Below the pieces are notes generated by a model. It was given only the letters and a program-made list of their open reading frames with translations, was not told the origin of the DNA and searched no databases. Below are positions 25,702-57,133 of a DNA stretch of 64,000 nucleotides, piece after piece; within the stretch, counting starts at the first letter, position 1; each line of letters begins with the position of its first letter. The DNA is from an uncultured Thermoplasmatales archaeon (lineage in GTDB: Archaea; Thermoplasmatota; Penumbrarchaeia; Penumbrarchaeales; Penumbrarchaeaceae): positions 21,921 to 85,920 of the forward strand of contig CAYULA010000003.1 of NCBI GenBank assembly GCA_964445525.1, in the 5' to 3' direction. A program made the translations under genes and the position numbers.

Positions 25702-28700
25702 ATGCGTACCCAGGACGTGAGGAGTATGTTGAGAAAAATGTTGGGTTCTTTTCTATTGAGTATATTGGTGATATATAGTTTGATGACAATAATTAATGGA
25801 GAGGTAGATGCTGATCAGATACAGGATATTGATGCACAGGCAAACAAGGATTGGACAATAATGGTTTACCTCGATGCCGATAACAATCTTGAGGGCCAGG
25901 GTGTTAACGATTTTCTTGAAATGGCTGAAGTGGGTTCCGATTCCAATGTCAATATTGTTGTCCAGATGGATAGGATAGGTTGGAGCGATCTCTATGATCA
26001 CTACATTTCCCTTGGATATACATCTACAGAAGCAGCATATGAAGCAAATATAGCAGATGATGACAGATATGGCGATTGGTCTTCGACCAAAAGATTCCTA
26101 GTGGGAGAAGATGATACACCCATCTCCTCCAATGCTATTTCCGATATTGGAGAACAAGATATGGGCGATCCGGATACACTCTATAGCTTCATTGCTTGGT
26201 CCCTTACCAATTATCCCGCAGATAGATATGGTTTGATATTATGGGACCACGGAGACCAATGGAATGGTGTATGCTCAGATGATACAGATAATGGAAATCT
26301 TTTAAACATGTCAGAATTGGATGAAGTTTTCTACAATTTAACCATTATTAAGGGTTTCCACATGGATTTTATTGGTTTTGATGCTTGTTTAATGGCATCC
26401 GCAGAGGTTGCTTATCAAATGTGGGGTTATGCGGATTATATGATAGCTTCAGAAATGACTGAACCTGGTCAAGGATGGATATATAACTGGTCATTTGGGG
26501 CTCTTGCCTCTAATCCAGATATGTCAACTGAAAAAGTATGTAAAGTTATAGTTGATGATTATGTGGAGTCTTATGAGACGATCTATTCTGCCTATCAAAA
26601 CGATGTGACCTTGTCTGTTGTGAATTTTACTTCGGATTTCTATTCTGGAATCTATGCGGTTTATAACTTTACTTACGAGCTTTACAATAATTATTCTCTT
26701 TATCAGAACTATATCAATTATGGATGGGGTGTTAGGGAGAATTACAGTGAAAAATATTGTGATATGTTGGATCTTTTTAATACAATTTTTATTGAGACCA
26801 ATCATTCTTTATTGAACGATCTTTTTGAGAGGATGGTCAACAATCTCACCGGAGTTTATTGCTACCAGAACTGGAGCGATGGAGATAACGACGGATATCC
26901 TTACTGGGCTACTGGTCTCTCCTTATATTTCCCTGCATACGATTATTATAACAGCGAGTATACAAAGGATCAATATTTCTACTTCCCAAAGGACACATAC
27001 TGGCCGGATCTACTTTGGAAATTTTACTTACAACCTACAAATACCGATCCCGTAATTAGTGTTATTAACCCCACCCAGACAAAGGTTTCTATTTTTGAGA
27101 CTCAGGAGATCGAGTTCAATGTTTCCGCCACCGATAGTGAAGGAAATTATCTCAGATATTACTGGTTCCTCGATGATGAATTCATTGGTCAGGGGAATAC
27201 TCTCACGATTTCGACAGATTTCGGTGATGCAGGATCATATACGATAGATTGTGTTGTTGCAGATGGAGCTTGGAACGGAATCCCATATGGGTTGACTGGT
27301 TATGATATGCAATCATGGACACTTAACATTCTTGAAGATGAGGAGAAACCTGTCGTCATGATACTAGATTCTTGGAACGAGAGGCCTTTTCTTGATAAGT
27401 ATAATAATTTTGAAGTTAAAGTGACAGATAATGTCGAGGTCGAAGAAGTTAATATTATTACGGATTTTCTTAGTATTGATGAATCATTCAATATCACTAT
27501 TGAAGAAAAGGTAAAGGACATTTATTCAATACTCTACTTCGTTCCTGAAGAAGGATTTCCAGAGCAGAGAACTGATCCTGGATGGCATAATGTGACTTTC
27601 ACCGCCTGTGATACGGCTGGAAATTGGGTTGTTTACCCGGACGTACCATATTATCTAAATGACATTTTTGATCCAGTTGTAGTGCTTGATTCCAATGATG
27701 AGATCAACCAACATCAGGTATATTCATTCGATGGTTCCGGATGCACGGATAACTGGAAAATTGTCAACTACACATGGAGATTCAACTATAACGGAGAAGA
27801 GGTAATCCTATATTCGATAGATCCTGTTTTCCTATTCGACATTGCAGGGACCTATCCTGTGAATCTAACAGTAACTGATCCCGATGGGAATTCCGCTTGG
27901 GGAATAATCAATATTGAGGTAAGGGATGTTGACAATCCGTTCATTGAAGCGGGAGAGGATGTGGTTGTTGACCAGCATCAAGCTGTTTCCTTTAATGGTG
28001 ATGATTCCCAGGACAATGTAGGTATCGTCAATTGGACATGGTCATTCCGATATGATGGATCAACAATCAATTTATTTGGTGAATTTCAAGAATTCATTTT
28101 CAACAATGCAGGGATTTACAACATCAGTGTAACAGTGAAAGATGATGAAGGTAATACTGCCTCGGATTACTTCTTGGTAACTGTTAATGATATCACTAAA
28201 CCCGTAATTGTCATCGAACCGATGGTAGTTATTGATCAGCATGAAAACCCGCAATTTGATGGCAGTTACTGCACGGATAATGTTGGTATCGTGAATTGGA
28301 CATGGTCCTTTGACTACAACGGGATTGGGATTACTTTATTTGGTATGATACAGGAATTCACTTTTCACGAGGCCGGTATCTACAATATATCCTTAATATT
28401 GAGAGATGAAGCGGGCTATTCGGCTTCAGGTTTCTTCCTTGTTAAAGTGATTGATATCACTGATCCGGTTATCGATATAGATCCTTTGATTATAATAAAC
28501 CAACACGACGTGCTTCGATTGGATGGAAGTTCCTGTTCTGATAATGTTGCAGTAACAAATTATACATGGTCTTTCACTCTGGATGACGAATTTTTTACCT
28601 TATACGGATTAAATCCAGAATTTACTTTCCATAATTCCGGTGAGATCACGATTACATTGATAATCGAGGATGAAGCTGGGAATTCAGCTTCGGGATTGCT

Positions 28701-29262
28701 AAGAATTAGGATTTTGGATGTCACAGCTCCAACTGCCAATATTACCTTTGAAAAAATTGGGGAAGATCCTGTTGAATACTCATTTGATGGTTCAGGATCT
28801 AATGATAATGTGGGTATCATTCATTATAACTGGACGATCATTTTCAATGATAATGAATCGGATAAAACAGGAGAAAATATTGAACATACCTTCAATGAAC
28901 CAGGAACATATATTGTAACACTCGAAGTGTGTGACTTGATGGGACTCTGTTCCACTGAAACTGTTACAATAACGATTGTGAAACCCGATGAACCAATAGA
29001 TGATGATACAGATACAGATACAGATACAGATAGCGATGACGATATGGACGATGATAGGGATTCTGATGTTGAGGGAGAGGATAGTGAAGACAAGGGTTTA
29101 TCGTCGGTAATGATTCTAATGATCATAGTCGGAGTAATTATCCTGCTCGGAATCCTGGGAGTGTTGACTTTAATATTCATTGTAAAAAAGAAGGAACCTG
29201 AAGAGGGTAAGATGGCTGAAAACTCTTTCAACAGCCAATCATTCCCTCCAGATGATACATAA
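25702..29262 (+). CDS. secreted clostripain-family (C11) cysteine peptidase with six PKD-like domains and C-terminal TM anchor
   Basis: WTIMVYLDADNNLEGQGVNDFLEM...NIVVQMDR, LILWDHGDQWNG (catalytic His context) and FIGFDACLMASAEVAYQM (catalytic Cys context) are the C11 hallmarks. One isolated PKD-like unit and five tandem ~88-aa units follow. Then an acidic DTDTDTDTDSDDD stalk and TM helix VMILMIIVGVIILLGILGVLTLIFIV. The whole gene is visibly AT-rich. Confidence 0.85.
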   Translation: MRTQDVRSMLRKMLGSFLLSILVIYSLMTIINGEVDADQIQDIDAQANKDWTIMVYLDADNNLEGQGVNDFLEMAEVGSDSNVNIVVQMDRIGWSDLYDHYISLGYTSTEAAYEANIADDDRYGDWSSTKRFLVGEDDTPISSNAISDIGEQDMGDPDTLYSFIAWSLTNYPADRYGLILWDHGDQWNGVCSDDTDNGNLLNMSELDEVFYNLTIIKGFHMDFIGFDACLMASAEVAYQMWGYADYMIASEMTEPGQGWIYNWSFGALASNPDMSTEKVCKVIVDDYVESYETIYSAYQNDVTLSVVNFTSDFYSGIYAVYNFTYELYNNYSLYQNYINYGWGVRENYSEKYCDMLDLFNTIFIETNHSLLNDLFERMVNNLTGVYCYQNWSDGDNDGYPYWATGLSLYFPAYDYYNSEYTKDQYFYFPKDTYWPDLLWKFYLQPTNTDPVISVINPTQTKVSIFETQEIEFNVSATDSEGNYLRYYWFLDDEFIGQGNTLTISTDFGDAGSYTIDCVVADGAWNGIPYGLTGYDMQSWTLNILEDEEKPVVMILDSWNERPFLDKYNNFEVKVTDNVEVEEVNIITDFLSIDESFNITIEEKVKDIYSILYFVPEEGFPEQRTDPGWHNVTFTACDTAGNWVVYPDVPYYLNDIFDPVVVLDSNDEINQHQVYSFDGSGCTDNWKIVNYTWRFNYNGEEVILYSIDPVFLFDIAGTYPVNLTVTDPDGNSAWGIINIEVRDVDNPFIEAGEDVVVDQHQAVSFNGDDSQDNVGIVNWTWSFRYDGSTINLFGEFQEFIFNNAGIYNISVTVKDDEGNTASDYFLVTVNDITKPVIVIEPMVVIDQHENPQFDGSYCTDNVGIVNWTWSFDYNGIGITLFGMIQEFTFHEAGIYNISLILRDEAGYSASGFFLVKVIDITDPVIDIDPLIIINQHDVLRLDGSSCSDNVAVTNYTWSFTLDDEFFTLYGLNPEFTFHNSGEITITLIIEDEAGNSASGLLRIRILDVTAPTANITFEKIGEDPVEYSFDGSGSNDNVGIIHYNWTIIFNDNESDKTGENIEHTFNEPGTYIVTLEVCDLMGLCSTETVTITIVKPDEPIDDDTDTDTDTDSDDDMDDDRDSDVEGEDSEDKGLSSVMILMIIVGVIILLGILGVLTLIFIVKKKEPEEGKMAENSFNSQSFPPDDT
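27671..28985 (+). repeat. five tandem ~88-codon PKD-like units inside the C11 peptidase gene
   Basis: The units share DQHQ-x-FDGS-C-DNVGIVNWTWSF-Y-G-x-LFG-x-EF-F-x-AGIYNIS-x-V-D-x-GN-AS. Units 2 and 3 are the most alike. Confidence 0.7.
29005..29032 (+). repeat. (GATACA)n hexanucleotide microsatellite encoding (DT)n
   Basis: gataca x4 plus a partial unit, read directly from the sequence. It lies in the acidic stalk of the C11 peptidase. Confidence 0.9.
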
Positions 29263-29291: not shown

Positions 29292-30467
29292 TCAGTTCAG
29301 CAATGTACTTTCCAGGTACTCTATCAATTCCTGTACCGGGACATCCTGGATCGTTATCAGCGTTGTATTGCCCACAGTCCCCTTCCCGGACCTCTTGGTC
29401 GAAATAAGGCCGAAAGCATCCATCTCCTTCATGTACTGCCAGAACTGGGTATGGCCGAGAGGTTTCTTGTTCACCTGCTCGCAGAGGGCCTGATATTCGG
29501 ATTCGAGCTCCCCCGTGGAGCAGTATGCCGTTTTCTTTAAAAGCCTGGAGGCTGCCAGAAGCATGACCTGCTCGTGGACGTTGAGCTGATGAATGGTCTC
29601 CTCGAAGATGAAAGGTTTTACATCGGCTTTGGCCCACCGTGCATGCTCGGCATTGACTGTGTCGCTTCCCCTCTCCTCTGCAACCATGCCGGATTTCTCC
29701 AGCAGTTCTATGGCAAACCTTGCATCGCCGTATTCCTCCGACATGGAGGCAATCATCTCGGATACACCGTTTTCCACGATATTCTGATGAAAGGCGAGAT
29801 CGATCCTCTGATCCACTATGGCTTGAAGTATCTCCATGTCGTATTTTCCGAACTCCAGGTGATTCGTTCTCTTGAATGTTGAAAGGGAGGCCTTGTCCAG
29901 GAGCTGTACGATGGCCTTCTGGCTCACCATCACGAGAGATATGGATCCCAGGAGCTCCTCGTCCTCTTCCTGGATCCTGGTGAAATTGTAGACCAGATCT
30001 GACCCGGACCTCTTCAGGAGAACATCCGCCTCGTCAAGAACTATCACAAGGTGGCACTCCCTTCTCTTGAGGTGCTTTTTGAGTATCTCTATCATCTCCG
30101 GGATGGAGAATCCCCTGTCGGGGAACCTGGGATCGAAATGGGTGAGTATTGAAAGCAGTACCATTGATTCGGATTTTCTGTTCCTGCAGTTGACATGCAC
30201 GCTCTCTATCCTTCTCCTGTTTTCGAGACCCGCTTCCTCTAAGACCATGCAGAATCTCTTCACCACTGCGGTCTTTCCCGATCCTACAGGTCCGGTGACC
30301 AGGGCTGTCTGGCTCATCCCGTCGTAGAGGACTGGCCGGAATAATCTTGCAAGACCGTCCATTTCCTTTTCCCTGCCGGGGAGCTCCTCCGGTACGTAGT
30401 CGAAGGACAGTTTGGACTGGTCCTTGAATATGTTGCTTCGCTTCAGCGCATCGAGGGCGGTCTTCAT
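29292..30467 (-). CDS. cdc6: Orc1/Cdc6 replication initiator AAA+ protein
   Basis: LSFDYVPEELPGREKEM, Walker A VTGPVGSGKTAVV, Walker B HLVIVLDEADVLL, and a C-terminal winged helix. 391 aa. Confidence 0.9.
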   Translation of the reverse strand: MKTALDALKRSNIFKDQSKLSFDYVPEELPGREKEMDGLARLFRPVLYDGMSQTALVTGPVGSGKTAVVKRFCMVLEEAGLENRRRIESVHVNCRNRKSESMVLLSILTHFDPRFPDRGFSIPEMIEILKKHLKRRECHLVIVLDEADVLLKRSGSDLVYNFTRIQEEDEELLGSISLVMVSQKAIVQLLDKASLSTFKRTNHLEFGKYDMEILQAIVDQRIDLAFHQNIVENGVSEMIASMSEEYGDARFAIELLEKSGMVAEERGSDTVNAEHARWAKADVKPFIFEETIHQLNVHEQVMLLAASRLLKKTAYCSTGELESEYQALCEQVNKKPLGHTQFWQYMKEMDAFGLISTKRSGKGTVGNTTLITIQDVPVQELIEYLESTLLN

Positions 30468-30501: not shown

Positions 30502-31074
30502 TCACCGACCCTTGTCCCCCTTCCCCATGCCTCCCAGAGGCTCGGCCTTTCTTTGAGAGGAGTTCTCCGCACATTCAATGTTCGATCTCCTCTCCCTCTG
30601 CCTCCTCATCCTGGCTATCTGCCCGGGAGAGGGTCCGCAATCCTCATCGTCTGTCTCTTCCTCCTCCTCTCCTTCCTCCTTTTTTGATCCGGATCTCTTT
30701 TCCTCCTCCGTGGAGGAAAATGTGGTCGTGCAGTGGTAGCAGAAGTTCAGGTCCTCTTCGATCTGCTTCCCGCAATTGGGGCAGACCTTCATTCCAAGCT
30801 CCTCTCCGGGCCGCTTGAATCCTTTTATTCCGTAAAAGAGCCACAAAGCTCCGAATGCCATGGAGGCTGCCCCCGCTGGAATCAGAATCGGCCCTCCGGT
30901 AAGATCGTCCCCATCAAGGTCCCGGGGCTCTCCTACGGTCGCCTGGTAGGAGAACCCCCACAGGAGGAGCATTCCTCCAACCATCACCATGAATACACCT
31001 ACGCCAATGGCGATCCATTTTACATATATCGAGGTAGACCTCGATTTCTTTTCCTTCGATCCGTCATCAACCAT
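30502..31074 (-). CDS. two-TM membrane protein with cytoplasmic zinc ribbon and acidic tail
   Basis: TM helices WIAIGVGVFMVMVGGMLLLWGF and AASMAFGALWLFYGI, then VCPNCGKQIEEDLNFCYHCTT. It ends 34 nt upstream of the cdc6 start on the same strand. Confidence 0.6.
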   Translation of the reverse strand: MVDDGSKEKKSRSTSIYVKWIAIGVGVFMVMVGGMLLLWGFSYQATVGEPRDLDGDDLTGGPILIPAGAASMAFGALWLFYGIKGFKRPGEELGMKVCPNCGKQIEEDLNFCYHCTTTFSSTEEEKRSGSKKEEGEEEEETDDEDCGPSPGQIARMRRQRERRSNIECAENSSQRKAEPLGGMGKGDKGR

Positions 31075-31159: not shown

Positions 31160-34100
31160 TCAATTGGCCTTGGGTAAGGTTATTTTGAACCTCGCACCCG
31201 ATTCGGGTTTTCCCTCAATCCTGTCCAGGACCTGGATCGTTCCCTGATATCGATTCACAAGCTCCCTGACAAGAGATAGACCGATCCCGCTGTAGCCGTA
31301 ATCGGATCCCTTGACGAACCTGTCAAAGACCTGATCCTTCTGATCGTCTGGGATACCTATGCCGTGATCGCAGATATCAAGCTGTATCTCGTCGTCCAGA
31401 TTTTGGAGGTCTATGTCAATTCTCACGATATCGCCGTATTGGAACTTGACACCGTTATGAAGCAGATTGAAGAAGACCTCCTCGAATACGGGTTCTGCAT
31501 ATACCTCCGCGCTTCCTTGGGGCGCATTGAGAGAGATTGACATATCCCTGTCCGCGAATAGTGTCTTTATCTCCCTTGTGCAGTTTTTCAGAATTGGTAT
31601 CAGATCGATCTTGGAGAGGTCCTCCTTCATGTCCTTCAGCCTGGAAAGGAGAAGTACGTTCCTTACCAGTTTGATCGACCTCTTTTCGAGCTCAATCATC
31701 TTCTGGAAAGCGTATTCTCTCTCTTTCTCGTTGTCCTTTTTTAACCTTGCGATTGCTGTCCAGGCTTGAAGGCCCTGATGAATATTTCCAATATCGTGGG
31801 AGAGCAGATCCAGATAGAACTCCGCCCTGTTCTTTTCCAGTTCCACCTGCTCCCTGGACATGATCCTCTCCGTAACATCCCTAAGGACTCCCACGATGGT
31901 GATCTTTCCATCCTTGCCCTCAACCATCTTGGCCGAGGCGCTGATATGCTTGACCCCGCCGTCTTTGTGAATGGTCCTGTATATGAAGTTGGAAATCCTT
32001 CGTTTCTCGATCATCTGATGGAGCAATTCCATGCATTTTTCGATATCATCGGGATGTATGAAATCAACATAGCTTTTCCCTACAACCTCATCGGGTGAGT
32101 ATCCGAAAATCTCCTCGGTCTGGGGTGAGCAGTAGATAATGTCGGTGTCAAATGATATCTCCATCACGGCATCGGAGAGGTTATCCATCAAGGTCTTGTA
32201 TCGCTCCCTGCTTTCACGGTAGGCCTCCTCCGTCCATCTCCTCTCCAGATCGCTTGTCATGAGGTCGCTTATTACCCTCAGGATCTCGGTCTCGGTAGAT
32301 TTCCAGTTCCTCACTTTCTCCGTATCATCGAATCCCATGAATCCCCACAGACTGCCGCTTTTGGATATAATGGGAACAACCAATACCGATTTGATATCCT
32401 GGCTTTTGAGAGCTTCTCTCTCGGAGTAGGCCTCATCCGGGAGTTCCTCAAGGTTATTTACGGGTATGGTCTTCCCCATTCCCAGATTTTTCATCCACCA
32501 GGGGAAGATACTCGTATCAAGGTCCTGAAGATTTTCCAACTGTGGTTCGGTCCCGTGAGAGCACCATTCATGTGTGTTGTCCATCTTGGTTCCGTTTTCC
32601 CTCAAGCGGAAGATATAGGCTCTATTGACAGAAACGGATTGGCCCATAATCTTCAGGATGGTGTTGTAGTCGGCTTCCTCCGTTGATACGAACATCTTGG
32701 AGATTTCCGCGACAACCTTGTCCAGTCTGCTCCTGTACATCAGCTCATCTTCGGTTCTCTTTCTATCCGTGATATCGTGAAAGACCACTATCCCTGACTT
32801 TACCGTGCCTTCTTCATCGAGAATGGGAGAGGCGTTTGCGCTTACCCATCTGTCCTCTCCTTTTTCATTTCTTATGATCACCTCCTCATCCTTGACCGTT
32901 TCACCATTGAGAACCGCTCTCGAGAGGGGAAGCTTTTGCGGAGGGCAGGGCGATCCGTCCGGTAGAAAGGTCTGCCAACTGCTGCTGTGTTTTTCCAGTT
33001 CTATATCCGTAAGATTTTTCTTTTCTCCTCCTCGGATGCCGAAAGCGGCAGGATTTGCCAGTGTGATCTTCACATCGGGTGCTTCTGCGACCAGGATCCC
33101 CGAAGGTGAATTGATGAATGCCGCTTCAAGCATGCTCTTGGTTCTTGCCAGTTCTTCCCTGGATAGTTTCTTTTCCGTAATATCCATATGAGTTCCGCAG
33201 GCCCTGATCGGGGATCCGTCTTCTCCCCTCTCGAAAACCTTTCCCATATCCAGGATCCATTTCCATTGACCCGATTGATGCTTCATTCTGTACTCTGCCT
33301 CGTAGTATTCGATTTCTCCGTCAAGATGGGTTTGAAGGATCTTCATAACCTTTTCTTCATCATCCGGGTGGAGAAGACCTTTCCATGTATTGAGATCAAG
33401 GTCCAGTTCATCCGGTCTGTATCCCAGTACCTCCGCCCAACGATCGTTGAATATCAGCTTTCCCGTGGGAATGTTCCAGTCCCACATGCCCAGATCGGTC
33501 GCCATTATGGCAAGTCTCAATCTCTCCTCGCTCTCTTCCAGTGATTTCCTTATTTCGTATTCCTCGGAGACATCCCTGAATATCAGGACCACTCCCGATG
33601 TCTTTCCGTCCGAAGAGATTACCGGAGCCGCCGAATCCGCTATCTGATGCTCGTTGCCTTCCCTGTCGATCAAAAGGGTATCATTTGCAAGCCCCACAAT
33701 CGAACCGGATTCCAGGACCTGTGAAACAGGATCCACAACCCTCTTCCTTGTATGCGAATTGACTATTCTGAACACATCACTAAGAGGACGCCCTCTGGCA
33801 GATTCCTCATCCCATCCGGTGAGGTCCTCTGCAACTGAATTCATCCTCCTTATCCTGCCATCAATATCGGTAGAGATCACGGCATCCCCTATGCCGTAAA
33901 GGGTGGCTTTAAGCTCAGCTTCCTGCTGAGCAAGCATTTTTTGTGACTCCATTCTTTCGGTTATGTCCTCATACGTTCCCAGGATCCCGACAACATTTCC
34001 ATCATTATCCCTGATGGGAACCTTGTTTGTATCGAGCCATGCATTCTTACCGTCGGCTTGCTTCTGAGGTTCAATTATATGGTATCGAGGTATGCCGGAT

Positions 34101-34372
34101 TCCATGACCTCTCTGTCGCATTTAATGAAGAAATCCGCTTCCTCCTTCTTCCAGGCAAGATCATGGTCCGTTTTTCCCACTATCTCCTCCGGCGAGCCCA
34201 CCCCTGCCACTGTAGCGAAATTCTCGTTGCAGCCCATGTAGACGGAATTCCGGTCCTTCCAGAAGATGAATTGTGGTATGGAGTTAATCACCATCTTGAG
34301 CATTGAATCGTTATTCGAGTAGAAATCCCGGCTTATTGAGGTCCCAGAGGGCGAATCTCCTTCCGAATCCAT
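31160..34372 (-). CDS. multi-PAS/GAF sensor histidine kinase (cytoplasmic)
   Basis: At least five PAS/PAC units (e.g. [19 protein letters not shown]; [22 protein letters not shown]; [15 protein letters not shown]), a GAF-like segment, an H-box [13 protein letters not shown], and an HATPase_c domain (N-box [27 protein letters not shown]). No TM helix and no adjacent response regulator. Confidence 0.9.
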
Positions 34373-34737: not shown

Positions 34738-35760
34738 ATGGGTCTGTTCAGCAAGAAGCCCAAGGTAAGGTTCGAGACCATAACAATTGACAGGGAGACA
34801 GAGGTCTTCCGCGCCCTTGAGAACAAGGGATGGATACTCTGCGATGACCCATTCCAATTCGATCTGCACAAACCTCCTGAAAAGCTGAGAAAGGACGCCA
34901 TGAGCGTCGCAAAGGATCTCAAAGGGGAGCTCATTGTTGAGATCTATGATCCCATTTACGTGAATATGCCCTGGAAAGGGCTCAGATATGCTGTATGGAG
35001 AAGGGCCACACCCGATCAGATCCGGGAGCGTATTGCAAAACAGCAGGAAAAGGCCAGGCCCAATTACAAGGATACAATGGGATCATATGATGATATCCAG
35101 AGGCAGCTCGACCAGAGGAGGATCCATGTATCGGATGAGGACCTGCGTGCCCTTGACGACCTGAAGTTGGATCAGGATTCCGACCTCAAAGGCGATTCCG
35201 GGGGTAAGCAATCAGATGAGCTCAGGATGGCCAACGAGGCGATCCAGGCGATCTCCACTTTCGATCCCTACGAACATCAGGGAGAGTATGCAGATGAGGG
35301 GGCGGAATCCAAAGGTCCGGTTTTCGAGGAGAGTATAGAACTCCAGGCCGATGTCCCCGATGCAACAGACCCGTCCGAGGAAATCAACGCAATGGACATG
35401 ATGATGGGCGAAGCACAGAAACAACCGGCCGTACCGCAGCAGGAAGGACAGGTTCCCATGGAAACCGAGAAGCCGCAGCCTCCGGCAATTCAGACACCGG
35501 CATCACCTCCCGCAAATATCCAACAGGCTCAGCCTCCAGCCAACAGACCCCAGGCCTCACCTCCGTCAAACGTTCAGAGGCCCCAGCCTCCCGCCAATCA
35601 ACAACCTGCAAGGCCGCCAGCAAATACCCAACAGGCCCAGCCACCTGCCCGATCGAATCAAGCTCAGCCTCCCGCACAACAACCTTCCGATTCGGGCTTC
35701 AAGGCCCCTCCCCCCCCACCCAATAACATGGTAGGAAAAAGGGATGAAGATGAAGACTGA
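34738..35760 (+). CDS. hypothetical protein with Pro/Gln-rich degenerate repeats
   Basis: GGAGGTG lies 5 nt upstream of the ATG. The C-terminal third is PPAIQTPASPPANIQQAQPPANRPQASPPSNVQRPQPPANQQPARPPANTQQAQPPARSNQAQPPAQQ. No domain recognised. Confidence 0.55.
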   Translation: MGLFSKKPKVRFETITIDRETEVFRALENKGWILCDDPFQFDLHKPPEKLRKDAMSVAKDLKGELIVEIYDPIYVNMPWKGLRYAVWRRATPDQIRERIAKQQEKARPNYKDTMGSYDDIQRQLDQRRIHVSDEDLRALDDLKLDQDSDLKGDSGGKQSDELRMANEAIQAISTFDPYEHQGEYADEGAESKGPVFEESIELQADVPDATDPSEEINAMDMMMGEAQKQPAVPQQEGQVPMETEKPQPPAIQTPASPPANIQQAQPPANRPQASPPSNVQRPQPPANQQPARPPANTQQAQPPARSNQAQPPAQQPSDSGFKAPPPPPNNMVGKRDEDED

Positions 35761-36530: not shown

Positions 36531-36669
36531 AACCAGAATTGTTTACCAGCTCCAGCCAAAGGATTTATAAAGATATCACATATGGAACATGAACAGATCG
36601 TGAGGAAAAGGAGTGGTCCTATTGAAAAACAAAAATCCAAATGCGGGTCACCCCTCAAGGAGGATGGTC

Positions 36670-39600
36670 ATGAGACTCGTATTCTCACTTTCAGTCCTTC
36701 TTCTATCATCAATCACAATTGTACCGGCAGTTTTCAATTATGATGTCTCCGCCCAGGAGAATACTCCGCCGGTTGCCAATGCCGGGGATGACATCACGGA
36801 GGTACTCCTTAACCAGGAGGTGCTTCTCGACGGTTCGAATTCAACCGACGAGGATATAGATAACTGCACATGGTCCTGGGAATGCACCTCACATGAGGAT
36901 GTGGAAATACTCGACAATGACACTTCAATGGCTTCCTTCATTGTTTTCACCGAGGAGACCATCACATTCCTTCTCACGGTAACAGATCCGGGAAATCTAA
37001 CGGATACGGATGAACTCGAGGTGATCCCCGATATCAACGAGGACCCCACTGTGGACCCTCTTTCAATAATGCCGGCGGATTCGGGGCCCGAGGGCCCATT
37101 TTACGAGATATCGGAACCAATCGAATTCAACGCCACAACCGTTTCCGATTCCGAATCCACCCTGGATGAGCTGTCATTCACATGGGAATCGGATGTGGAA
37201 GGTGAAAGATCATTTCCATCGGAGCCTGCCTTCAACAGGACCATGAACGTATTGGGTTGGCACAACATAACCCTGACCGTCGCCGATCCCAACGGGGGAG
37301 AGTCGATTCTGATAAAGAAGATAAAGGTCAGGGAGGACATCCGGGGCCCTACGGCTGTCATGGATCTCATTCCGAATCGTTCTATATACACAAAGGGAGA
37401 GATCATAACTCTGGATGCAACCGATACGGAGGACCCCAATACCTTCGATACGCTGGAGACCATGAATTTTACCTGGCGCACCAACATAAGCGGAGGAAGA
37501 ATACTTGGTTATGGCGCTGTTTTGAATGTTACCCTCGAGGAGGGATTCCACAACATCAGCCTGAAAGTAACTGATACGGATGGATTGACCTCTGTTGATT
37601 TCAGGACGATAGAGATATCCAACGATCCTCCGGTTGCCGTTATTTCCACACCCGAAATCAGGTCGAGGAACGGCGTAAGGACCGTCAATGTAAGCGAGAC
37701 CGCTTCCTTTTCTGCTTTCAACTCTTTCGACCGCAACGGTGACGATCTGGAATACAGCTGGGATTTCGGCGACGGCACCTCCGCTTTCGGTGTCAATGTC
37801 ACAAACATCTACAACGATTTCGGAACCTTCAACGTAACACTGGAGGTCGATGACGGATCAACCAAAGACAATCTGGGAAATGACACGGTCAGGATCGATG
37901 TCAACACCATACCGGAAGCAGTCATAGAGCCACCCGGAGATATTATCGTGGGAGAGTCATACCAATTCTCCGCCAACGGTACAACGGACGAGGACGGAGA
38001 TGATCTTACCTACAGGTGGGATTTTGACGGCGACGGTTTATTCGATCAATCCGGTTTCAACTCTTCTTTCACTTACGAGGAGGAGGGGGAGTTCACTGTA
38101 ACACTTCATGTCGACGATGATTTCGCTGTCTCCACGGCTGAAGTGATCTTCCGGCCCAAACTTCCCAACGAGGCGCCCATTCCCGCTATCGTGGGATGGG
38201 AAGAGGGCGACGATCCCATTATAGTCGCTCTCGAGGATGACAGGGGAGAGGTGGAGCTCGATGCAAGCGCTTCCATCGACCCCGACGATGACAGCAACAA
38301 CAACGGGATAATCGATGGCAGAGAGAGGAACAATCTGACCTTTACCTGGGACCTCGATGCCGAGGACGATGAAAACAGGGATGGTATAGACGACAATGAT
38401 TTCACAAAACGCGGAGACACGGTCAGGGTCCCGGTAGAGGACGACGATATCTTAAGGGTAAGGCTCAATGCCACCGATGAGAGGGGTGTCTCATCATACC
38501 TTATCATCCTCATTCGAGGCGATCACCCCCCTGATGTTACGGATCTGAGAACCAACAAGAAGTCCAAGATCTATGTCAACTCCACGGTAGATTTTACCTC
38601 AACCGCAACGGACGAGGACAGCGGCCAGACCAGGGATCTGAGGTACCACTGGGACTTCGGGGACGGTAACGTAAGGAACGATACCCAGTCCACCACATCC
38701 TACAAGTATACCGAACCCGGATCCTACGAGGTCTATTCCTGGGTAACCGACGGATATCTGTGGGGTTTTGCCAGGTCCACGATAACGGTGGTGGAATTCG
38801 AAGGATTGGAGATCCGCTTCCCCCGGAACGGAGCCACGCTTAAGGGCAATGTTATCATGAGAGGTTATGTGGATCACCTTCTCGATTACAGGATAGAGAG
38901 AGTGGAGGTCAGGATAGACGGAGGGGAGTGGGAGAGGGCAGACAATCCCCCTGACTGGGAATACGAGTTGAACACGTTCAACCTCCCGGATGGAGAACAC
39001 GAACTGGAGGTCAGGGCCCTGCTGGATACCGGGGTGGAACAGACATCCTCGGTCACATTTACGGTTTCCAACACCGTGGAGCAGGACAATTCGGGATTGA
39101 TAGCCGGAATAGTGATCTTCATCGTGGTCCTTGCCGTGGTTGTTGTGATGTTCTTCCTTCTATTCGGAAAGAGGAAGTCAAGGGCTCAGGAACTCATGGG
39201 GCCTCCCCCCGGACCCGGGCCTGGTATTCCTGGCATGGTCCCACCTGGAGGTCTTCCCAAACCCCCTCAAAGGGCCAATCTGCCACCCACACAGGCACCT
39301 CCCAAAGAGGAGGAGAAACCCGAAGAGAAACCTCCGGAGGAAAAAGGACCCAAGATTGTGAGGGTCAAGTGCCCCTCGTGCAAGAAGGTGTTCAAGGTAG
39401 AGGATACCGGAGACAGGCCGTTGACCATGACCTGCACCCACTGCGGGGCGAAGGGATCCATTTCCCAGGTTCCGGGTGACGATAAGAAAGAGGAAACCCG
39501 AGAAGAAGAGGAAGAGGACGAGGGACCCGAACCGATCTCGATCATCTGCCCCTCCTGTTCAGGGATGTTCGAACTCGACCATGTCATGGATGAGGCTACC

Positions 39601-39786
39601 TGTCCGTTCTGCAACGTGAAGGGAGAACTTGACGAGGATACGAAGGCAGGACTGAAGGAGAGGTTCGGAGAGGAGGAGACCGAGGAGGTCAGCGTCAGGT
39701 GCCCCTCCTGTCAGGGTAAATTCTCCATAAAGTCCACCGACAAGGAGATCATCTGCCCTTACTGCGGTGTGTCGGGAAACGTCTGA
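36670..39786 (+). CDS. giant PKD-repeat surface protein with TM anchor and cytoplasmic tail carrying three zinc ribbons
   Basis: ATG 36670 lies 6 nt after GGAGG. Signal MRLVFSLSVLLLSSITIVPAVF. Multiple PKD signatures (SWDFGDGTSAFG...FNVTLEVDDG; YRWDFDGDGLFDQ...FTVTLHVDDD; YHWDFGDGNVRND...YEVYSWVTDG). TM helix LIAGIVIFIVVLAVVVVMFFLLFG. The Pro-rich tail carries CPSC-x18-CTHC, CPSC-x15-CPFC and CPSC-x15-CPYC. Confidence 0.8.
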   Translation: MRLVFSLSVLLLSSITIVPAVFNYDVSAQENTPPVANAGDDITEVLLNQEVLLDGSNSTDEDIDNCTWSWECTSHEDVEILDNDTSMASFIVFTEETITFLLTVTDPGNLTDTDELEVIPDINEDPTVDPLSIMPADSGPEGPFYEISEPIEFNATTVSDSESTLDELSFTWESDVEGERSFPSEPAFNRTMNVLGWHNITLTVADPNGGESILIKKIKVREDIRGPTAVMDLIPNRSIYTKGEIITLDATDTEDPNTFDTLETMNFTWRTNISGGRILGYGAVLNVTLEEGFHNISLKVTDTDGLTSVDFRTIEISNDPPVAVISTPEIRSRNGVRTVNVSETASFSAFNSFDRNGDDLEYSWDFGDGTSAFGVNVTNIYNDFGTFNVTLEVDDGSTKDNLGNDTVRIDVNTIPEAVIEPPGDIIVGESYQFSANGTTDEDGDDLTYRWDFDGDGLFDQSGFNSSFTYEEEGEFTVTLHVDDDFAVSTAEVIFRPKLPNEAPIPAIVGWEEGDDPIIVALEDDRGEVELDASASIDPDDDSNNNGIIDGRERNNLTFTWDLDAEDDENRDGIDDNDFTKRGDTVRVPVEDDDILRVRLNATDERGVSSYLIILIRGDHPPDVTDLRTNKKSKIYVNSTVDFTSTATDEDSGQTRDLRYHWDFGDGNVRNDTQSTTSYKYTEPGSYEVYSWVTDGYLWGFARSTITVVEFEGLEIRFPRNGATLKGNVIMRGYVDHLLDYRIERVEVRIDGGEWERADNPPDWEYELNTFNLPDGEHELEVRALLDTGVEQTSSVTFTVSNTVEQDNSGLIAGIVIFIVVLAVVVVMFFLLFGKRKSRAQELMGPPPGPGPGIPGMVPPGGLPKPPQRANLPPTQAPPKEEEKPEEKPPEEKGPKIVRVKCPSCKKVFKVEDTGDRPLTMTCTHCGAKGSISQVPGDDKKEETREEEEEDEGPEPISIICPSCSGMFELDHVMDEATCPFCNVKGELDEDTKAGLKERFGEEETEEVSVRCPSCQGKFSIKSTDKEIICPYCGVSGNV

Positions 39787-54098: not shown

Positions 54099-54388
54099 CT
54101 CTGGCGGACTATCGATTCCTATACTAAAAACTATGTCCCGTATACTGATTCAAACAGGGATAATTTCTTACATGTTGGGAAAATAGATTGACATGGGGGA
54201 GATTTACATTCGGTGAATACCCGATTTCATAAGTACATATATTCGGTAACCTCCAGCCTCCTGTCGGAATATAATATATAATTGGATATACATTTCCGGT
54301 ACATCCGACATACCAGTATTGTACCTTAACGGGGAAGGTCCCGAGGGACCTGGTCAATGCTGGGTTGGATCAGTGGGAGGGCAAAGAG

Positions 54389-57133
54389 ATGCATAAGAGG
54401 ATAGGGCTTGTTGTTGTCGCCGTGATGTTAATAGGAGGATTACTTCCATTTCTTGCGGGAGCGGAACCAACGAGGACCCTTTCGGCGGAGATAGTCGATG
54501 TGATGCTGGATGGAGAACTCGGACCCGATGGTGAGTATGCCTCCGGAACGCATGAGGTCTCATATCTGGTGAACAACACTGGCACCGAATATTTCACGGA
54601 CCTTACGACAGTTTACATGAAGGTATTCTATCCCAACGACACTCTCTACATGTCGATGGAGGAGGACAGTATTATTGCGGTTGACAATGAAACCTCCACA
54701 ATGGGAGAGTTCGTATTCGGGGATATCATCCTTCCGGAAGGTGAGTTCACCATAGTCATCAATGCCACACTAAGAGGGGTCAACTCCAGTGCAGAAATCG
54801 ATGTAACGGTTGCGGATGTGGTGGATCTCTCCATTGACAGTGATTTCTTCGAACCGGAAGGAACCTATCCGCTGAGCGAGGAGATGATGCCCAGCTATTC
54901 CGTGGAATACGACGGAAACGTAATGGGATGGGCAGGCAACGTTACTGTTGACCTGGTAATCACCTACGTTGATTCCGAGCCAAACCAGGTTAGCTACGAC
55001 GAGGAAATGGAGATAATGATGTACAATTCCACTCCGGTTGATCCGGGTCATGAATTCTCCATGATGTTCGGTGCGGGATGGACTCCCGCGATCTCCGGCC
55101 AGTACAGGGCCGTATTCACTGTTGATGCCACCGACATTGCTGATGATTATTATCCGGAAAACGACACATTCACGGTCTTTTTCTTCATAGAAGAGGCCCC
55201 ATCCATAGAGGGCTGGGTCAAGACTTCCACCGGAACACCCGTTTCGGACGTAAACGTGAAGGCAATGATCGGTTCCATAGACACCAATATTATGACCGAT
55301 GCATCCGGTTATTATCAGTTCATGGATCTGGCTCCCGGAATATACTCACTGGAGTTCACCAAGCTCTGGTCCACATCGGAGCTGAACTCTTCCGTGGAGG
55401 TTTTCGATGGACAGACCACTGTGGTCAATGCCACCATAAACAAGATGGCAGTCGGTGGACTTGAAGGAAAGGTATTCCTTCCCGACGGTGTGACACCGGC
55501 GGTTGGAGCCGAGGTTTCGATAAACGTACCCGGTGAACCCCTGGCCACGGAGATCACCAATGAGGACGGTAATTATTCCTTTACAACGGTCAAGGCAGGT
55601 CAGATCAGCGTCTTTACAAGTTTGGAAGGTTACGAGAACGATGAGAGACCTTCGTTTCTGATAATAGAACAGATCTGGAATCCGCTGGACCTCACCCTCG
55701 GCGAGATACAGTTTACGGTTGACTTTTCACCTCCTGACGGGGAATTGTCGATATCTATCTCACCTACCATAACGCTTCAGTTCTCCAGGCCGATCAACAG
55801 GTCCACGGTAAACGAATCCACAATCTACATGGTTGATCTTACAACGAGCGAGACCCTTCCCGTTGCTTTTTCATTCATCGATGTGGAGAACAAGGTCCTC
55901 GTGGAACCCGAAAATCTGCTGGAATACAACAGGGATTATCGAATAACCGTCACCGATATGGTGGAGGATGTGAACGGAAACCCGTTCCCCGACATCCGGT
56001 TCGCAAGCTTCACCACCGAGGTGCAGATAGTGGAGGTCGAGCTCCAATCCTTCTATCCCGGAGACGATCAGAGTGAGGTCCCAATTGACATCAGCATAAC
56101 TGCCACTTTCCCCGAACCAATGGACGGATCGACAATAAATACCAATAACTTCCAGATTTTCATAAGCGGGGGCGGAGGATCTCCAATTCCGGGTTCGGTT
56201 GTATATTACTCCAACAATTATACCGCAAGGTTCACGCCCGCATCCAATCTTCAGTACAACGGAAGATACTCGGTATCACTGAACAACCTGGTAGAACCGC
56301 TGGACCCGAACCACATATTCCTGGGCGCTACATGGTCCTTCGAGACAATGCCGCTGATAACCACGGGAACAGTGATGGGATATGTCCTGGATGACAATGG
56401 AGAGCCTTTCCTCCCCACCGAAGTGACGATAAACATCCAGAAGGGAGACCAGAATCCGATCTCCCTGAATGTTGACCAGGCCGGAAAGTTCGAAAGAGCC
56501 GGTCTGGAAGCCGGTCTATGGACAATTACCATCCAGGTCCCTGATTACAAGAAGCACACCGATGAGTTCACCATTGTGGCCGGCGAGGATACCAATCTTC
56601 AGGATATCGAACTGGATGAAAAGGAGGAAGACGGAGGGATCATGGATAACATCGGAGCCATAGTTCTTGTCATCCTGGTGATTGTGATCGTTCTCATACT
56701 TCTCTATGTGTTCCTGGGAAGGCGCGAGAGGCCCGTGGAAGCGGTTGAGGAACCTGCAAGAGCCAGGGGAAGACCGGCTGCCTTCGGAGGAGCACGGGAG
56801 AGGGAATCTCTCAGGGAAAGGGAGCCGTATTATGACGAGATAGCAGAAGGCGAGTTCATGTGTCCCGTCTGCGGTAATGTTGTAGGACCGGAGGACCCCG
56901 ACTGTCCCAGCTGCGGAGCGGAGTTTGAAGAGGACCTCTTCGAGTGTCCGGAATGCGGAACCCTGATTCCCGGAGAAGCCATGGAGTGTCCCGACTGCGG
57001 TGCGAAGTTCGAGGAGGAAGAGGACGAGGAAGGAGAGGAATACGAGGAAGAGGAAGAGGAACCCGACATCACCGAGGATTACGAGGTCGATGAGCTGGAC
57101 GAAGAGGAGATTCCTTTTCGCGAGAGAGAGTAG
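54389..57133 (+). CDS. giant surface protein (CARDB-like, CarboxypepD_reg-like, SbsA/Big_5 Ig-like domains) with TM anchor and cytoplasmic double zinc ribbon + acidic tail
   Basis: ATG 54389 lies 7 nt after GGGAGGG. Signal MHKRIGLVVVAVMLIGGLLPFLAGA. IEGWVKTSTGTPVSDVNVKA...DASGYYQFMDLAPGIYSLEF is CarboxypepD_reg-like. FSPPDGELSISISPTITLQFSRPINRSTV... is Big_5-like. TM helix IGAIVLVILVIVIVLILLYVFLG. The tail carries CPVCG-x9-CPSCGAEFEE and CPECG-x9-CPDCGAKFEE. Confidence 0.8.
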   Translation: MHKRIGLVVVAVMLIGGLLPFLAGAEPTRTLSAEIVDVMLDGELGPDGEYASGTHEVSYLVNNTGTEYFTDLTTVYMKVFYPNDTLYMSMEEDSIIAVDNETSTMGEFVFGDIILPEGEFTIVINATLRGVNSSAEIDVTVADVVDLSIDSDFFEPEGTYPLSEEMMPSYSVEYDGNVMGWAGNVTVDLVITYVDSEPNQVSYDEEMEIMMYNSTPVDPGHEFSMMFGAGWTPAISGQYRAVFTVDATDIADDYYPENDTFTVFFFIEEAPSIEGWVKTSTGTPVSDVNVKAMIGSIDTNIMTDASGYYQFMDLAPGIYSLEFTKLWSTSELNSSVEVFDGQTTVVNATINKMAVGGLEGKVFLPDGVTPAVGAEVSINVPGEPLATEITNEDGNYSFTTVKAGQISVFTSLEGYENDERPSFLIIEQIWNPLDLTLGEIQFTVDFSPPDGELSISISPTITLQFSRPINRSTVNESTIYMVDLTTSETLPVAFSFIDVENKVLVEPENLLEYNRDYRITVTDMVEDVNGNPFPDIRFASFTTEVQIVEVELQSFYPGDDQSEVPIDISITATFPEPMDGSTINTNNFQIFISGGGGSPIPGSVVYYSNNYTARFTPASNLQYNGRYSVSLNNLVEPLDPNHIFLGATWSFETMPLITTGTVMGYVLDDNGEPFLPTEVTINIQKGDQNPISLNVDQAGKFERAGLEAGLWTITIQVPDYKKHTDEFTIVAGEDTNLQDIELDEKEEDGGIMDNIGAIVLVILVIVIVLILLYVFLGRRERPVEAVEEPARARGRPAAFGGARERESLREREPYYDEIAEGEFMCPVCGNVVGPEDPDCPSCGAEFEEDLFECPECGTLIPGEAMECPDCGAKFEEEEDEEGEEYEEEEEEPDITEDYEVDELDEEEIPFRERE

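Follow-up and report, generated by a model that had tools for sequence, protein, structure and literature searches.

What function could three zinc-ribbon modules serve at the C-terminus of a large archaeal surface protein, and on which side of the membrane do they stand? The question is raised by a plus-strand gene (36664..39786; 1040 aa plus stop) in the window, the 64,000-nucleotide stretch of DNA analysed here. Its host is an uncultured sediment archaeon of the Thermoplasmatota, whose relatives are MAGs labelled EX4484-6 and named Ca. Penumbrarchaeia.

Gene, ectodomain and membrane topology

The ORF finder placed the start of the PKD surface protein at GTG 36613, which is probably not the true one. 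Translation more likely begins at ATG 36664 or 36670, 3' of a ribosome-binding site GGAGG (36659..36663, plus strand) that abuts the first of these codons and lies 6 nt 5' of the second. A database homologue (P0002) with ~98-99% identity has the same length of 1040 aa and the N-terminus MVMRL. A putative archaeal TATA box, TTTATAAA (36564..36571, plus strand), which shows resemblance to the consensus only, sits ~95 nt 5' of the start codon. The tail peptides quoted in an earlier note on this DNA match the translation of 36613-39786 (+) exactly. However, the protein that it termed giant has ~1,040 aa and is better described as large, as many surface ORFs in the same genome exceed that size.

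The protein starts with a putative Sec-type signal peptide, MVMRLVFSLSVLLLSSITIVPAVFNYDVSA (36664..36753, plus strand), composed of an N-terminal hydrophobic segment (Kyte-Doolittle) followed by V-S-A, with a predicted cleavage site. The 781-aa ectodomain (36754..39096, plus strand), delineated from Pfam domains, sequon and charge counts and the alignment, comprises a K319L-like PKD domain, three PKD/PKD_4 domains, a REJ-like region and a membrane-proximal Big_7 Ig domain. The REJ-like region carries an acidic DPDDD...NNLTFxWD block. The Pfam scores are 152.6 bits for PKD_4, 120 for PKD, 50.2 for the K319L-like PKD and 44.2 for REJ. As expected of a PKD cell-surface protein (PF18911, PF00801 or PF22352, with REJ PF02010), the PKD matches in the exported region are above cut-off.

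A single TM helix, LIAGIVIFIVVLAVVVVMFFLLF (39097..39165, plus strand), with a Kyte-Doolittle mean of 3.64, follows the ectodomain, and in the alignment all homologues have a hydrophobic segment at this position. The helix and the tail behind it are thus both present as described earlier, but the helix spans 39097-39165, and the tail start given as 39168 is off frame (codons begin at 39166 and 39169). The 15 residues after the helix carry a net charge of +3, compared to -2 before it. The ectodomain, which has a net charge of -115, holds 22 N-glycosylation sequons versus 8.5 ± 2.5 expected from shuffles, and the tail has none; the distribution of Cys is reversed, with 12 in the tail versus two in the 781-aa ectodomain. 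Judged by these simple rules (hydropathy, positive-inside, sequons and Cys distribution), the ribbon tail would lie on the cytoplasmic side of the membrane. The flank charges and the sequons support the type-I layout with a cytoplasmic tail that had been proposed.

Build and conservation of the ribbon tail

The tail (39166-39783), all parts of which are on the plus strand, carries three Cys4 ribbons 3' of a basic, Pro-rich linker. Its first part (39166..39354) consists of a basic stop-transfer segment (GKRKSR) and the Pro-rich linker with a conserved PPPGxGP...PPGGLP motif, in which P865, P866, G867, G869 and P873 are invariant in the alignment. Ribbon 1 (39355..39462) is a long Cys4 module (CPSC-x17-CTHC) with a net charge of +4 and a conserved D-x-G-(E/D)-R-P loop. 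It is followed by an acidic linker (39463..39534; net charge -9) that is predicted to be disordered, with an AF2 pLDDT below 50 at tail residues 47-59. Ribbon 2 (39535..39630), a short Cys4 module (CPSC-x14-CPFC) with a net charge of -4, is linked by an amphipathic acidic helix segment, (L)DEDTKAGLKERFG (39631..39687), to ribbon 3 (39688..39783), a short Cys4 module (CPSC-x14-CPYC) with a net charge of +2 at the extreme C-terminus. The helix segment is conserved, with the consensus LDEETxxxLxERF; the tail alignment shows hardly any variation at L, D, T, L and E, and AF2 predicts a helix at tail residues 97-107. In total, the tail has 39 acidic (D/E) versus 29 basic (K/R) residues. The pattern first reported, CPxC-x15/18-CxxC, is right as to three Cys4 ribbons, but the real spacers are x17, x14 and x14. 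The three modules are built alike, as the earlier note proposed. Their HMMs detect one another: those of ribbons 2 and 3 reach 24-31 bits on the other ribbons, and that of ribbon 1 reaches 6-17 bits on ribbons 2 and 3.

The AF2 model of the tail, which is of moderate confidence, shows the three ribbons apart from each other, each of them four-stranded (pLDDT about 75-82; about 75-81 for ribbon 1), with the acidic linker disordered and a single helix. Its pTM of 0.32 therefore indicates no fixed packing among the ribbons. Most likely, each ribbon holds one Zn2+ via its four Cys and folds independently, like beads on a string; it is the invariance of the 12 Cys that points to zinc binding. In Foldseek, the ZitP zinc finger (2nb9; prob 0.92, E-value 0.67) gives the most compact match, with a TM of 0.67 on the target and an rmsd of 2.5 Å.

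Among Pfam families, PF13717 (Zn_ribbon_4; cut-off 30.3 bits) gives 44.8-47.6 bits for the isolated tail, 29.7 for the full-length protein and 27.3 in a six-frame genome scan, and TIGR02098 scores 17.9, below its cut-off of 20.9. PF13717 is the top Pfam family for all 20 orthologous tails, which supports the suggested resemblance to MJ0042-type ribbons; PF13719 (zinc_ribbon_5), the ZitP family, matches 17 of the 20, and homologues in the database were already annotated with PF13717. The profile is covered by ribbon 1 alone (positions 2-33 of 36), which has the MJ0042-type pattern of CxxC knuckles ~17-19 apart and a pair of β-hairpins. The x14 spacing makes ribbons 2 and 3 a shorter variant, with no PF13717 match when scored alone. 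For the MJ0042-type domain (TIGR02098), which is usually N-terminal, a spacer of x19 is quoted, compared to x17 in ribbon 1. The solved MJ0042-type ribbon 7zok gives a weak sequence match to ribbon 1 (E 0.11-0.14). Profile searches of the PDB with the whole tail or ribbon 1 alone yielded generic knuckle matches only; the C2H2 arrays 2i13 and 1mey, which seemed to match strongly, owe this to their repeated 'KCPECGKSF' knuckles and are artefacts.

None of the 12 tail Cys has been lost in any of 21 orthologous loci. Eighteen of these loci share first-Cys distances of 21/18/18, the exceptions being L023 and L024 (both 21/18/19) and the outlier L026 (21/17/18), and the x17 spacer of ribbon 1 is invariant in all 21. 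Besides the 12 Cys, the 20 aligned tails invariably have an F behind every first knuckle and a G behind every second one. As the Cys are invariant and their distances nearly fixed across 21 loci, the ribbon pattern is not due to chance, and the objection that it might be a generic CxxC pattern without conserved spacing fails. In pairwise comparison, the ribbons are on average 66-68% identical, the ectodomain 53%, the linkers 41-43% and the TM 38%. By these alignments, the ribbons are better conserved than any other part of the protein and under the strongest purifying selection.

All 25 genomes sampled from the order have the tail (23/23 from its own family and 2/2 from the sister one). The synteny from cdc6 to Ldh2, GDPD and PEMT is conserved in about 16-18 species, and in every relative cdc6/orc1 is ~6 kb away from the gene. 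Its syntenic neighbours (cdc6, AcnX swivel, SCP2, Ldh2, GDPD and PEMT) are metabolic or housekeeping genes; two further conserved neighbours, ZnR190 and a 340-aa hypothetical, are not obvious partners either. Accordingly, a search of the conserved gene neighbourhood for a partner gave no evident candidate, the genes being mostly unrelated and without a functional link. The best explanation is that the gene encodes a core, single-copy, vertically inherited type-I surface glycoprotein of this Thermoplasmatota lineage.

Reuse of the cassette and possible functions of the tail

Cys4 or Cys-rich tails occur on at least 15 of the about 245 surface ORFs of type-I-like layout in the same genome, and the combination of a TM with a zinc-ribbon tail is indeed a recurrent theme, as had been supposed. 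Two proteins cited as fellow cases (54365..57133 and 30502..31074) share this theme but carry a short DZR/DUF7575-type ribbon instead of the x17-x14-x14 cassette. Such short tails (DZR, Zn_ribbon_1-3 and DUF7575; PF12773, PF13240, PF13248 and PF24460) occur on these two proteins and about 8 more surface ORFs of the genome. They resemble the present tail in the TM, the cytoplasmic Cys4 ribbon and the acidic tracts; however, they consist of CxxC-x9-12-CxxC rubredoxin-like knuckle pairs without the β-hairpin insert, GERP loop or helix, and belong to other Pfam families than ribbon 1 of the cassette.

The x17-x14-x14 cassette itself is found at the C-terminus of unrelated ectodomains, including β-helix/NosD with PKD, PKD with Big_7 and others without assigned domains, and two-ribbon x17-x14 versions of it exist. 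An LDEET-type helix follows ribbon 2 in the unrelated carriers P0031 and P0024 and, in weaker form, in P0036; the motif is absent at this position in P0026 and P0047. Moreover, the same genome encodes a cytoplasmic DnaK, a TPR protein and a coiled-coil protein (C5) that have related x16 ribbons at the C-terminus. The reuse of the cassette, together with the x16 ribbons on cytoplasmic proteins, fits a cytoplasmic interaction tag. The proteins considered below as members of a possible network all carry related ribbons beside highly acidic disordered tracts.

The reading that we prefer, with about an even chance of being right, is that of a cytoplasmic, multivalent protein-docking tail. The glycosylated PKD/Ig-rich ectodomain would stand outside and one helix would span the membrane, while the Pro-rich spacer would present a fixed cytoplasmic cassette of long ribbon, acidic linker, short ribbon, helix and short ribbon. 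Through a cytoplasmic partner, this cassette may tether, position or cluster the surface protein. Docking would be analogous to that of single MJ0042-type ribbons in ZitP, which bind PopZ, and in GltJ, which bind its own linker and MglB. That such ribbons can be partner-binding modules of membrane proteins has experimental precedent in ZitP-PopZ (PMC5182065) and in the binding of the GltJ ribbon to its linker and MglB (PMC11135422). Of the roles raised in the earlier note, signalling, cytoskeletal docking and secretion targeting are conjectural.

Alternatively, the tail might be a passive folded anchor or topology plug, whose ribbons, lacking a dedicated partner, only fix the C-terminus, stabilise the helix or block proteolysis. 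Tails as such are common, since many surface ORFs of the genome have long cytoplasmic tails free of Cys; the ribbons are small, independent and string-like in the AF2 model, and no partner gene is linked. However, a plug needs neither three modules in a fixed order and spacing nor the conserved D-x-G-E-R-P loop or the helix, and it leaves unexplained why the ribbons are conserved above the ectodomain across the whole order. As related ribbons are also present on soluble DnaK and TPR proteins, where anchoring is needless, we consider an anchor unlikely.

A wider reading, which we find distinctly doubtful, takes the ribbons as tags that address proteins to a hitherto undescribed cortical network of these Thermoplasmatota, in which surface tails, DnaK, TPR and long coiled-coil proteins would bind a common hub or each other. 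If it were true, the glycoprotein coat would be coupled to a chaperone-containing membrane skeleton, in a prokaryotic analogue of receptor-adaptor-cytoskeleton coupling.

There is a slim chance that the tail is a redox or metal switch, whose CPxC...CxxC sites would lose zinc or form disulfides under oxidative or metal stress and thereby alter the conformation or oligomeric state of the surface protein. The CPxC and CPYC motifs recall those of thiol-disulfide oxidoreductases, but the predicted fold is a zinc ribbon rather than a thioredoxin fold. The weak matches to anti-TRAP, HypA and dual-CXXC proteins are all under the cut-offs and cover knuckles only. Zinc accessibility is regulated in the GltJ ribbon (PMC11135422), whereas the gene context here holds no pointers to redox or metal homeostasis.

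Very little credence is due to a nucleic-acid-binding tail that would hold DNA or RNA, such as the origin region close by, at the membrane. The source labels on homologues that speak for it ('RPC12/RpoP' and 'CHY-type Zn-finger') are generic COG-style names and were not adopted, and the weak profile matches to RpoM/TFS, RpoP, eS27 and TFIIB ribbons all have E >= 0.02 and reflect the generic knuckle pattern only. The constant proximity of cdc6/orc1 looks like plain vertical inheritance of the whole block, and the tail is net acidic, with two of its three ribbons acidic or only slightly basic.

Scarcely credible is an RBR/IBR- or RING-like ubiquitin-type ligase tail with ribbons in place of RING1-IBR-RING2: the HOIP, HOIL-1 and parkin RBR modules in the top Foldseek rows (E 4e-3 to 0.07) superpose poorly (TM-scores ~0.2, rmsd above 11 Å), the IBR and IBR_1 matches of the isolated tail score about at their Pfam cut-offs but span only half of the profiles, no catalytic Cys context or nearby E1, E2 or Ub-like genes were found, and, compared to the two zinc and ~8 ligands of an RBR/IBR module, the four ligands per module here mean one zinc, with no cross-brace, C6HC pattern or extra conserved Cys/His, so that the ligand count largely refutes this identity, with the poor superposition also speaking against it.

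How the archaeal coat is connected to the cell interior is largely obscure, especially in Thermoplasmatota, some of which have no cell wall. Here, the most conserved part of a core surface glycoprotein is a small, probably cytoplasmic three-ribbon cassette, which recurs on giant surface proteins of unrelated kinds and has related ribbons on the Hsp70 of the lineage. Being short (about 150 aa) and expressible, the cassette could serve as bait for an intracellular partner. The domain type is already in Pfam; the value lies in a well-defined family and cassette, not in a new principle.

Comparison with known systems

Our reading of the literature on cytoplasmic zinc-ribbon tails of archaeal surface proteins found nothing specific, and PKD, zinc and surface proteins go unmentioned in the paper that described the EX4484-6 class. 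Nevertheless, the view in the earlier note that no described system applies is overstated, as ZitP and GltJ are bacterial analogues, both single-pass proteins with a cytoplasmic MJ0042-type ribbon that binds PopZ or MglB. PopZ is an alphaproteobacterial protein and is not known from archaea. In Caulobacter crescentus, the single-pass ZitP docks to the scaffold PopZ through a cytoplasmic Cys4 MJ0042-type ribbon of two β-hairpins; it is inserted N-in, with one N-terminal ribbon (C-x2-C-x19-C-x2-C) and a small periplasmic DUF3426 domain (PMC5182065). By contrast, the PKD surface protein has three C-terminal ribbons on a Sec-exported archaeal type-I glycoprotein. By Pfam, its ribbons are C-terminal to the TM and its PKD/REJ ectodomain lacks DUF3426, which sets it apart from a ZitP-type polarity module.

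GltJ/AgmX of Myxococcus xanthus (PDB 7zok) belongs to a surface-adhesion machine, in which the ribbon binds its own linker and then MglB (PMC11135422). It resembles the present tail in having a cytoplasmic MJ0042-type ribbon with a flexible linker, which form a switchable docking module, but it has a single N-terminal ribbon and a GYF domain, in an orientation opposite to that of a type-I tail. Pfam detects no GYF domain in the PKD surface protein, and there is no context of gliding machinery. The NF033761 GltJ profile gives 16.8 bits versus a cut-off of 450, which separates the protein from GltJ-type focal-adhesion switches, whose partners are MglA-GTP and MglB (Roadblock/LC7). Roadblock/MglB (PF03259) has no match in the 90%-complete genome; therefore, the GltJ mechanism is not directly transferable.

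Eukaryotic type-I adhesion receptors, such as integrin β and polycystin-1-like PKD/REJ proteins, have small conserved cytoplasmic tails that recruit adaptors. They likewise combine a large Ig/PKD/REJ ectodomain, one TM and a conserved tail, a likeness by analogy only; the tails share no homology, and the adaptors bind linear motifs instead of zinc ribbons. Altogether, should the docking reading hold, the idea of a membrane protein with docking ribbons, as in ZitP and GltJ, would no longer be confined to two bacterial cases but would cover a theme that is widespread in archaea.

Domain organization and topology of the surface protein

The frame at 36613-39786 (+) is open throughout, with no stop in its translation, and the surface-protein gene likely starts at ATG 36664 or 36670. 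These candidates lie immediately 3' of a GGAGG (36659-36663), and a TTTATAAA box can be read ~95 nt 5' of the candidate start; the N-terminus of a nearly identical database homologue is MVMRL. The product, encoded on the forward strand, comprises a signal peptide (36664-36753), an ectodomain of 781 residues (36754-39096), a single TM helix LIAGIVIFIVVLAVVVVMFFLLF (39097-39165) and a ribbon-bearing tail. The tail opens with a basic and Pro-rich linker (39166-39354), followed by ribbon 1 (CPSC-x17-CTHC, 39355-39462), an acidic linker (39463-39534), ribbon 2 (CPSC-x14-CPFC, 39535-39630), a helix segment (39631-39687) and ribbon 3 (CPSC-x14-CPYC, 39688-39783). The tail peptides quoted in an earlier note match the translation exactly, and its description of the tail is otherwise accurate, except that its tail start at 39168 is out of frame and its ribbon spacing of x15/18 is one residue off, the reading being CPxC-x17 in ribbon 1 and x14 in ribbons 2 and 3.

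The ectodomain matches the Pfam families K319L-like PKD, PKD/PKD_4 (three times), an REJ-like region and a membrane-proximal Big_7. Its best-conserved stretch is the acidic block SIDPDDDxNNNGxIDGRERNNLTFxWD (window 38200-38400, residues about 545-600), which is similar to calcium-binding TSP3/cadherin-like loops. The specificity of this block sufficed for its use as the query pattern of a genome scan for orthologous loci.

Simple topology rules, applied to three indicators, concordantly back the proposed N-out/C-in orientation. The 15 residues preceding the TM helix have a net charge of -2 and those following it +3 (GKRKSR); the ectodomain carries 22 N-x-S/T sequons, compared to 8.5 +/- 2.5 in composition-matched shuffles, and the 207-residue tail none; and two cysteines lie outside against 12 inside. 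These indicators strongly suggest that the ribbon tail is cytoplasmic.

Fold and family of the ribbons

AlphaFold2 modelling on an alignment of 20 orthologous tails, of moderate confidence (mean pLDDT 72, pTM 0.32), predicted that each of the three ribbons folds separately into four strands (block pLDDT about 75-82), that the acidic linker at residues 47-59 is disordered (pLDDT below 50) and that residues 97-107 form a single helix, with no fixed packing between the ribbons. Structural similarity search against the PDB using Foldseek placed RBR ligase modules in the top rows, at a TM score of about 0.2 and an rmsd above 11 Å. The most compact match was the zinc finger of ZitP, a Caulobacter crescentus membrane protein (PDB 2nb9), with a TM score of 0.67 on the target, an rmsd of 2.5 Å and a probability of 0.92, at a weak E-value of 0.67.

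Among Pfam families, ribbon 1 fits best to PF13717 (Zn_ribbon_4, MJ0042 type), which scores 44.8-47.6 bits on the tail against a cut-off of 30.3 and matches all 20 orthologous tails; on the full protein it reaches 29.7 bits against the same cut-off. PF13719, the family to which ZitP has been assigned (PMC5182065), matches 17 of the 20 tails, and TIGR02098 scores 17.9 against a cut-off of 20.9. The sequence match to the ribbon of Myxococcus xanthus GltJ (PDB 7zok) has an E-value of only 0.11-0.14. Ribbons 2 and 3 represent a shorter x14 variant and alone show no PF13717 match; in cross-recognition with custom HMMs, the ribbon-2 and ribbon-3 models scored 24-31 bits and the ribbon-1 model 6-17 bits. 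The domain type is already in Pfam, and homologues are automatically annotated with it.

Conservation and distribution of the ribbon cassette

The window is archaeal, encoding Orc1/Cdc6 at 29292-30467, and its nearest relatives are MAGs of Thermoplasmatota, among them 'ex4484_6' and 'Protein_d157_A_EX4484-6', the latter from an enrichment. The EX4484-6 class, for which a protein-fed enrichment has been published, has recently received the name Ca. Penumbrarchaeia (PMC12220078). Eleven full-length homologues, 46-99% identical in the tail, came from a word-indexed search, and the genome scan yielded 21 orthologous loci with products complete to the final residue. All 21 retain the six CxxC motifs, and the ribbon spacing is near-fixed: 18 loci have first-Cys distances of 21/18/18, loci L023 and L024 have 21/18/19, and the outlier L026 has 21/17/18. 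Across the 20 aligned tails the 12 cysteines, a Phe after each first knuckle and a Gly after each second are invariant, and near-invariance extends to the D-x-G-E-R-P loop of ribbon 1 and to the LDEETxxxLxERF helix that follows ribbon 2. The mean pairwise identity of the ribbons (66-68%) exceeds that of the ectodomain (53%), the linkers (41-43%) and the TM helix (38%); therefore, the cytoplasmic knobs are under the strongest selection.

Among 301 genomes sampled from the phylum, all 23 of the window's family and both of the sister family matched the tail profile at E <= 1e-43. Most other families of the class have weaker matches on different ~2000-aa proteins, and matches outside the class are rare. 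About 16-18 species share a block composed of a PKD protein, cdc6, a small 2-TM ribbon protein, a hypothetical protein, an AcnX swivel protein, SCP2, the surface-protein gene, Ldh2, GDPD and PEMT. The surface-protein gene is a vertically inherited core gene rather than an island gene. Two genes of the window, encoding a C11 clostripain-like peptidase-PKD protein (25702-29262) and a PAS/GAF histidine kinase (31160-34372), are missing from the cdc6-to-PEMT block in all covering relatives (about 13) and look like lineage-specific insertions adjoining the replication-initiator gene. The hypothetical protein at 34738-35760 (+), which in about 18 species is syntenic and lies 5' of the surface-protein gene, has 340 residues and no Pfam match; its C-terminal third consists of QPPA/PPAN Pro-rich repeats and ends in PPPPP. 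The small protein at 30502-31074 (-), which adjoins cdc6 in all relatives, has in order two TM helices, a short CPNC-x9-CYHC ribbon (DUF7575, 36.8 bits) and an acidic tail.

Against the full database, the profile of the 20 tails retrieved 530 cluster representatives at E <= 1e-3, of which 82 passed E <= 1e-10. The best 148 matches include 18 large ectodomain-TM-ribbon-tail proteins (10 of them three-ribbon), 73 small or fragmentary TM proteins with C-terminal ribbons and 43 soluble proteins. The exact order of x17 ribbon (with the GERP loop), x14 ribbon, helix and x14 ribbon is also present on unrelated ectodomains, including right-handed beta-helix/NosD plus PKD and PKD plus Big_7, and two-ribbon x17-x14 cassettes occur as well. 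A second flavour, with x16 spacing and a K/E-R-P loop, is arrayed in tandem on other surface proteins and stands C-terminally on DnaK (in the genome under study and sister genomes), a TPR protein and a coiled-coil protein (contig C5).

The anchored surface proteome of this 3.56-Mb genome is unusually large. A crude screen of six-frame ORFs with a hydropathy rule (N-terminal hydrophobic segment, more than 150 aa, C-terminal TM), whose counts are approximate, gave about 245 type-I-like surface ORFs, many over 1000 aa. At least 15 of them have Cys-rich or ribbon tails; the remaining tails contain zero cysteines in all but three cases, and the three-ribbon tail is found only in the protein at 36664..39786. 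The products of 54365..57133 and 30502..31074, which had been grouped with it as a recurrent theme, do share that theme, but their short DZR/DUF7575-type ribbon belongs to a different family.

Among soluble proteins, the DnaK/Hsp70 of this genome (locus L001, contig C30:14736-16946, +; Pfam HSP70, 789 bits) has a C-terminal extension in which a Lys/Glu-rich tract lies between two Cys4 ribbons of the K/E-R-P x16 type. Sister genomes have ORFs of similar length (729-755 aa), matched by the tail profile only, which are presumably the same fusion, and P0087 of the public protein set is a DnaK with three ribbons. Within the literature searched, Hsp70 with zinc-ribbon tags is apparently undescribed. 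One or more Cys4 ribbons also end soluble proteins of the TPR, long coiled-coil or extreme poly-Glu/Lys kind, encoded at C63:3581-5125 (-), C5:90698-92461 (-), C24:44179-46680 (+) and C13:20488-21702 (+). The C63 and C5 proteins carry x16 ribbons, that of C24 short DZR-like knuckle pairs and that of C13 a degenerate ribbon; these proteins may belong to a common set defined by ribbon tags.

Proposed function and comparison with known systems

The best-supported reading of the tail is a cytoplasmic multivalent protein-docking module. It is favoured because the ribbons are the most constrained part of the protein, and because the GERP loop and acidic amphipathic helix, as conserved non-ligand elements, resemble interaction surfaces more than structural necessities. 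Moreover, the cassette acts like a portable tag, related tags on a soluble chaperone and scaffold-like proteins put the function in the cytoplasm, and all experimentally studied membrane-protein ribbons of the MJ0042 type, those of ZitP and GltJ, bind partners. The rivals considered were a passive plug, a redox or metal switch, a nucleic-acid tether and an RBR-like ligase, the last of which does not fit the ligand count. Docking could serve positioning, clustering, turnover or outside-in coupling. Ribbon 1 carries a net charge of +4, the acidic linker -9 and ribbon 2 -4, and the helix is acidic; as a speculation, this alternation of a basic ribbon with acidic segments would permit GltJ-like intramolecular masking. 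No MglB-like protein was found in the 90%-complete genome, and the conserved neighbours in the synteny block give no informative hint of a partner.

We found no description in the literature of such ribbon tails on archaeal surface proteins, and the main value of the analysis lies in a sharply defined, testable cassette. The ribbon of ZitP binds PopZ (PMC5182065), and that of GltJ binds its own linker and MglB (PMC11135422). Similar to both, the surface protein is a membrane protein bearing a cytoplasmic MJ0042-type ribbon with a proposed docking role. Unlike both, its ribbons are C-terminal in a type I protein, and thus in the opposite orientation, number three in a fixed cassette, and accompany a different ectodomain in an archaeon not known to have the partners of those systems. 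The surface protein belongs to neither the ZitP nor the GltJ system.
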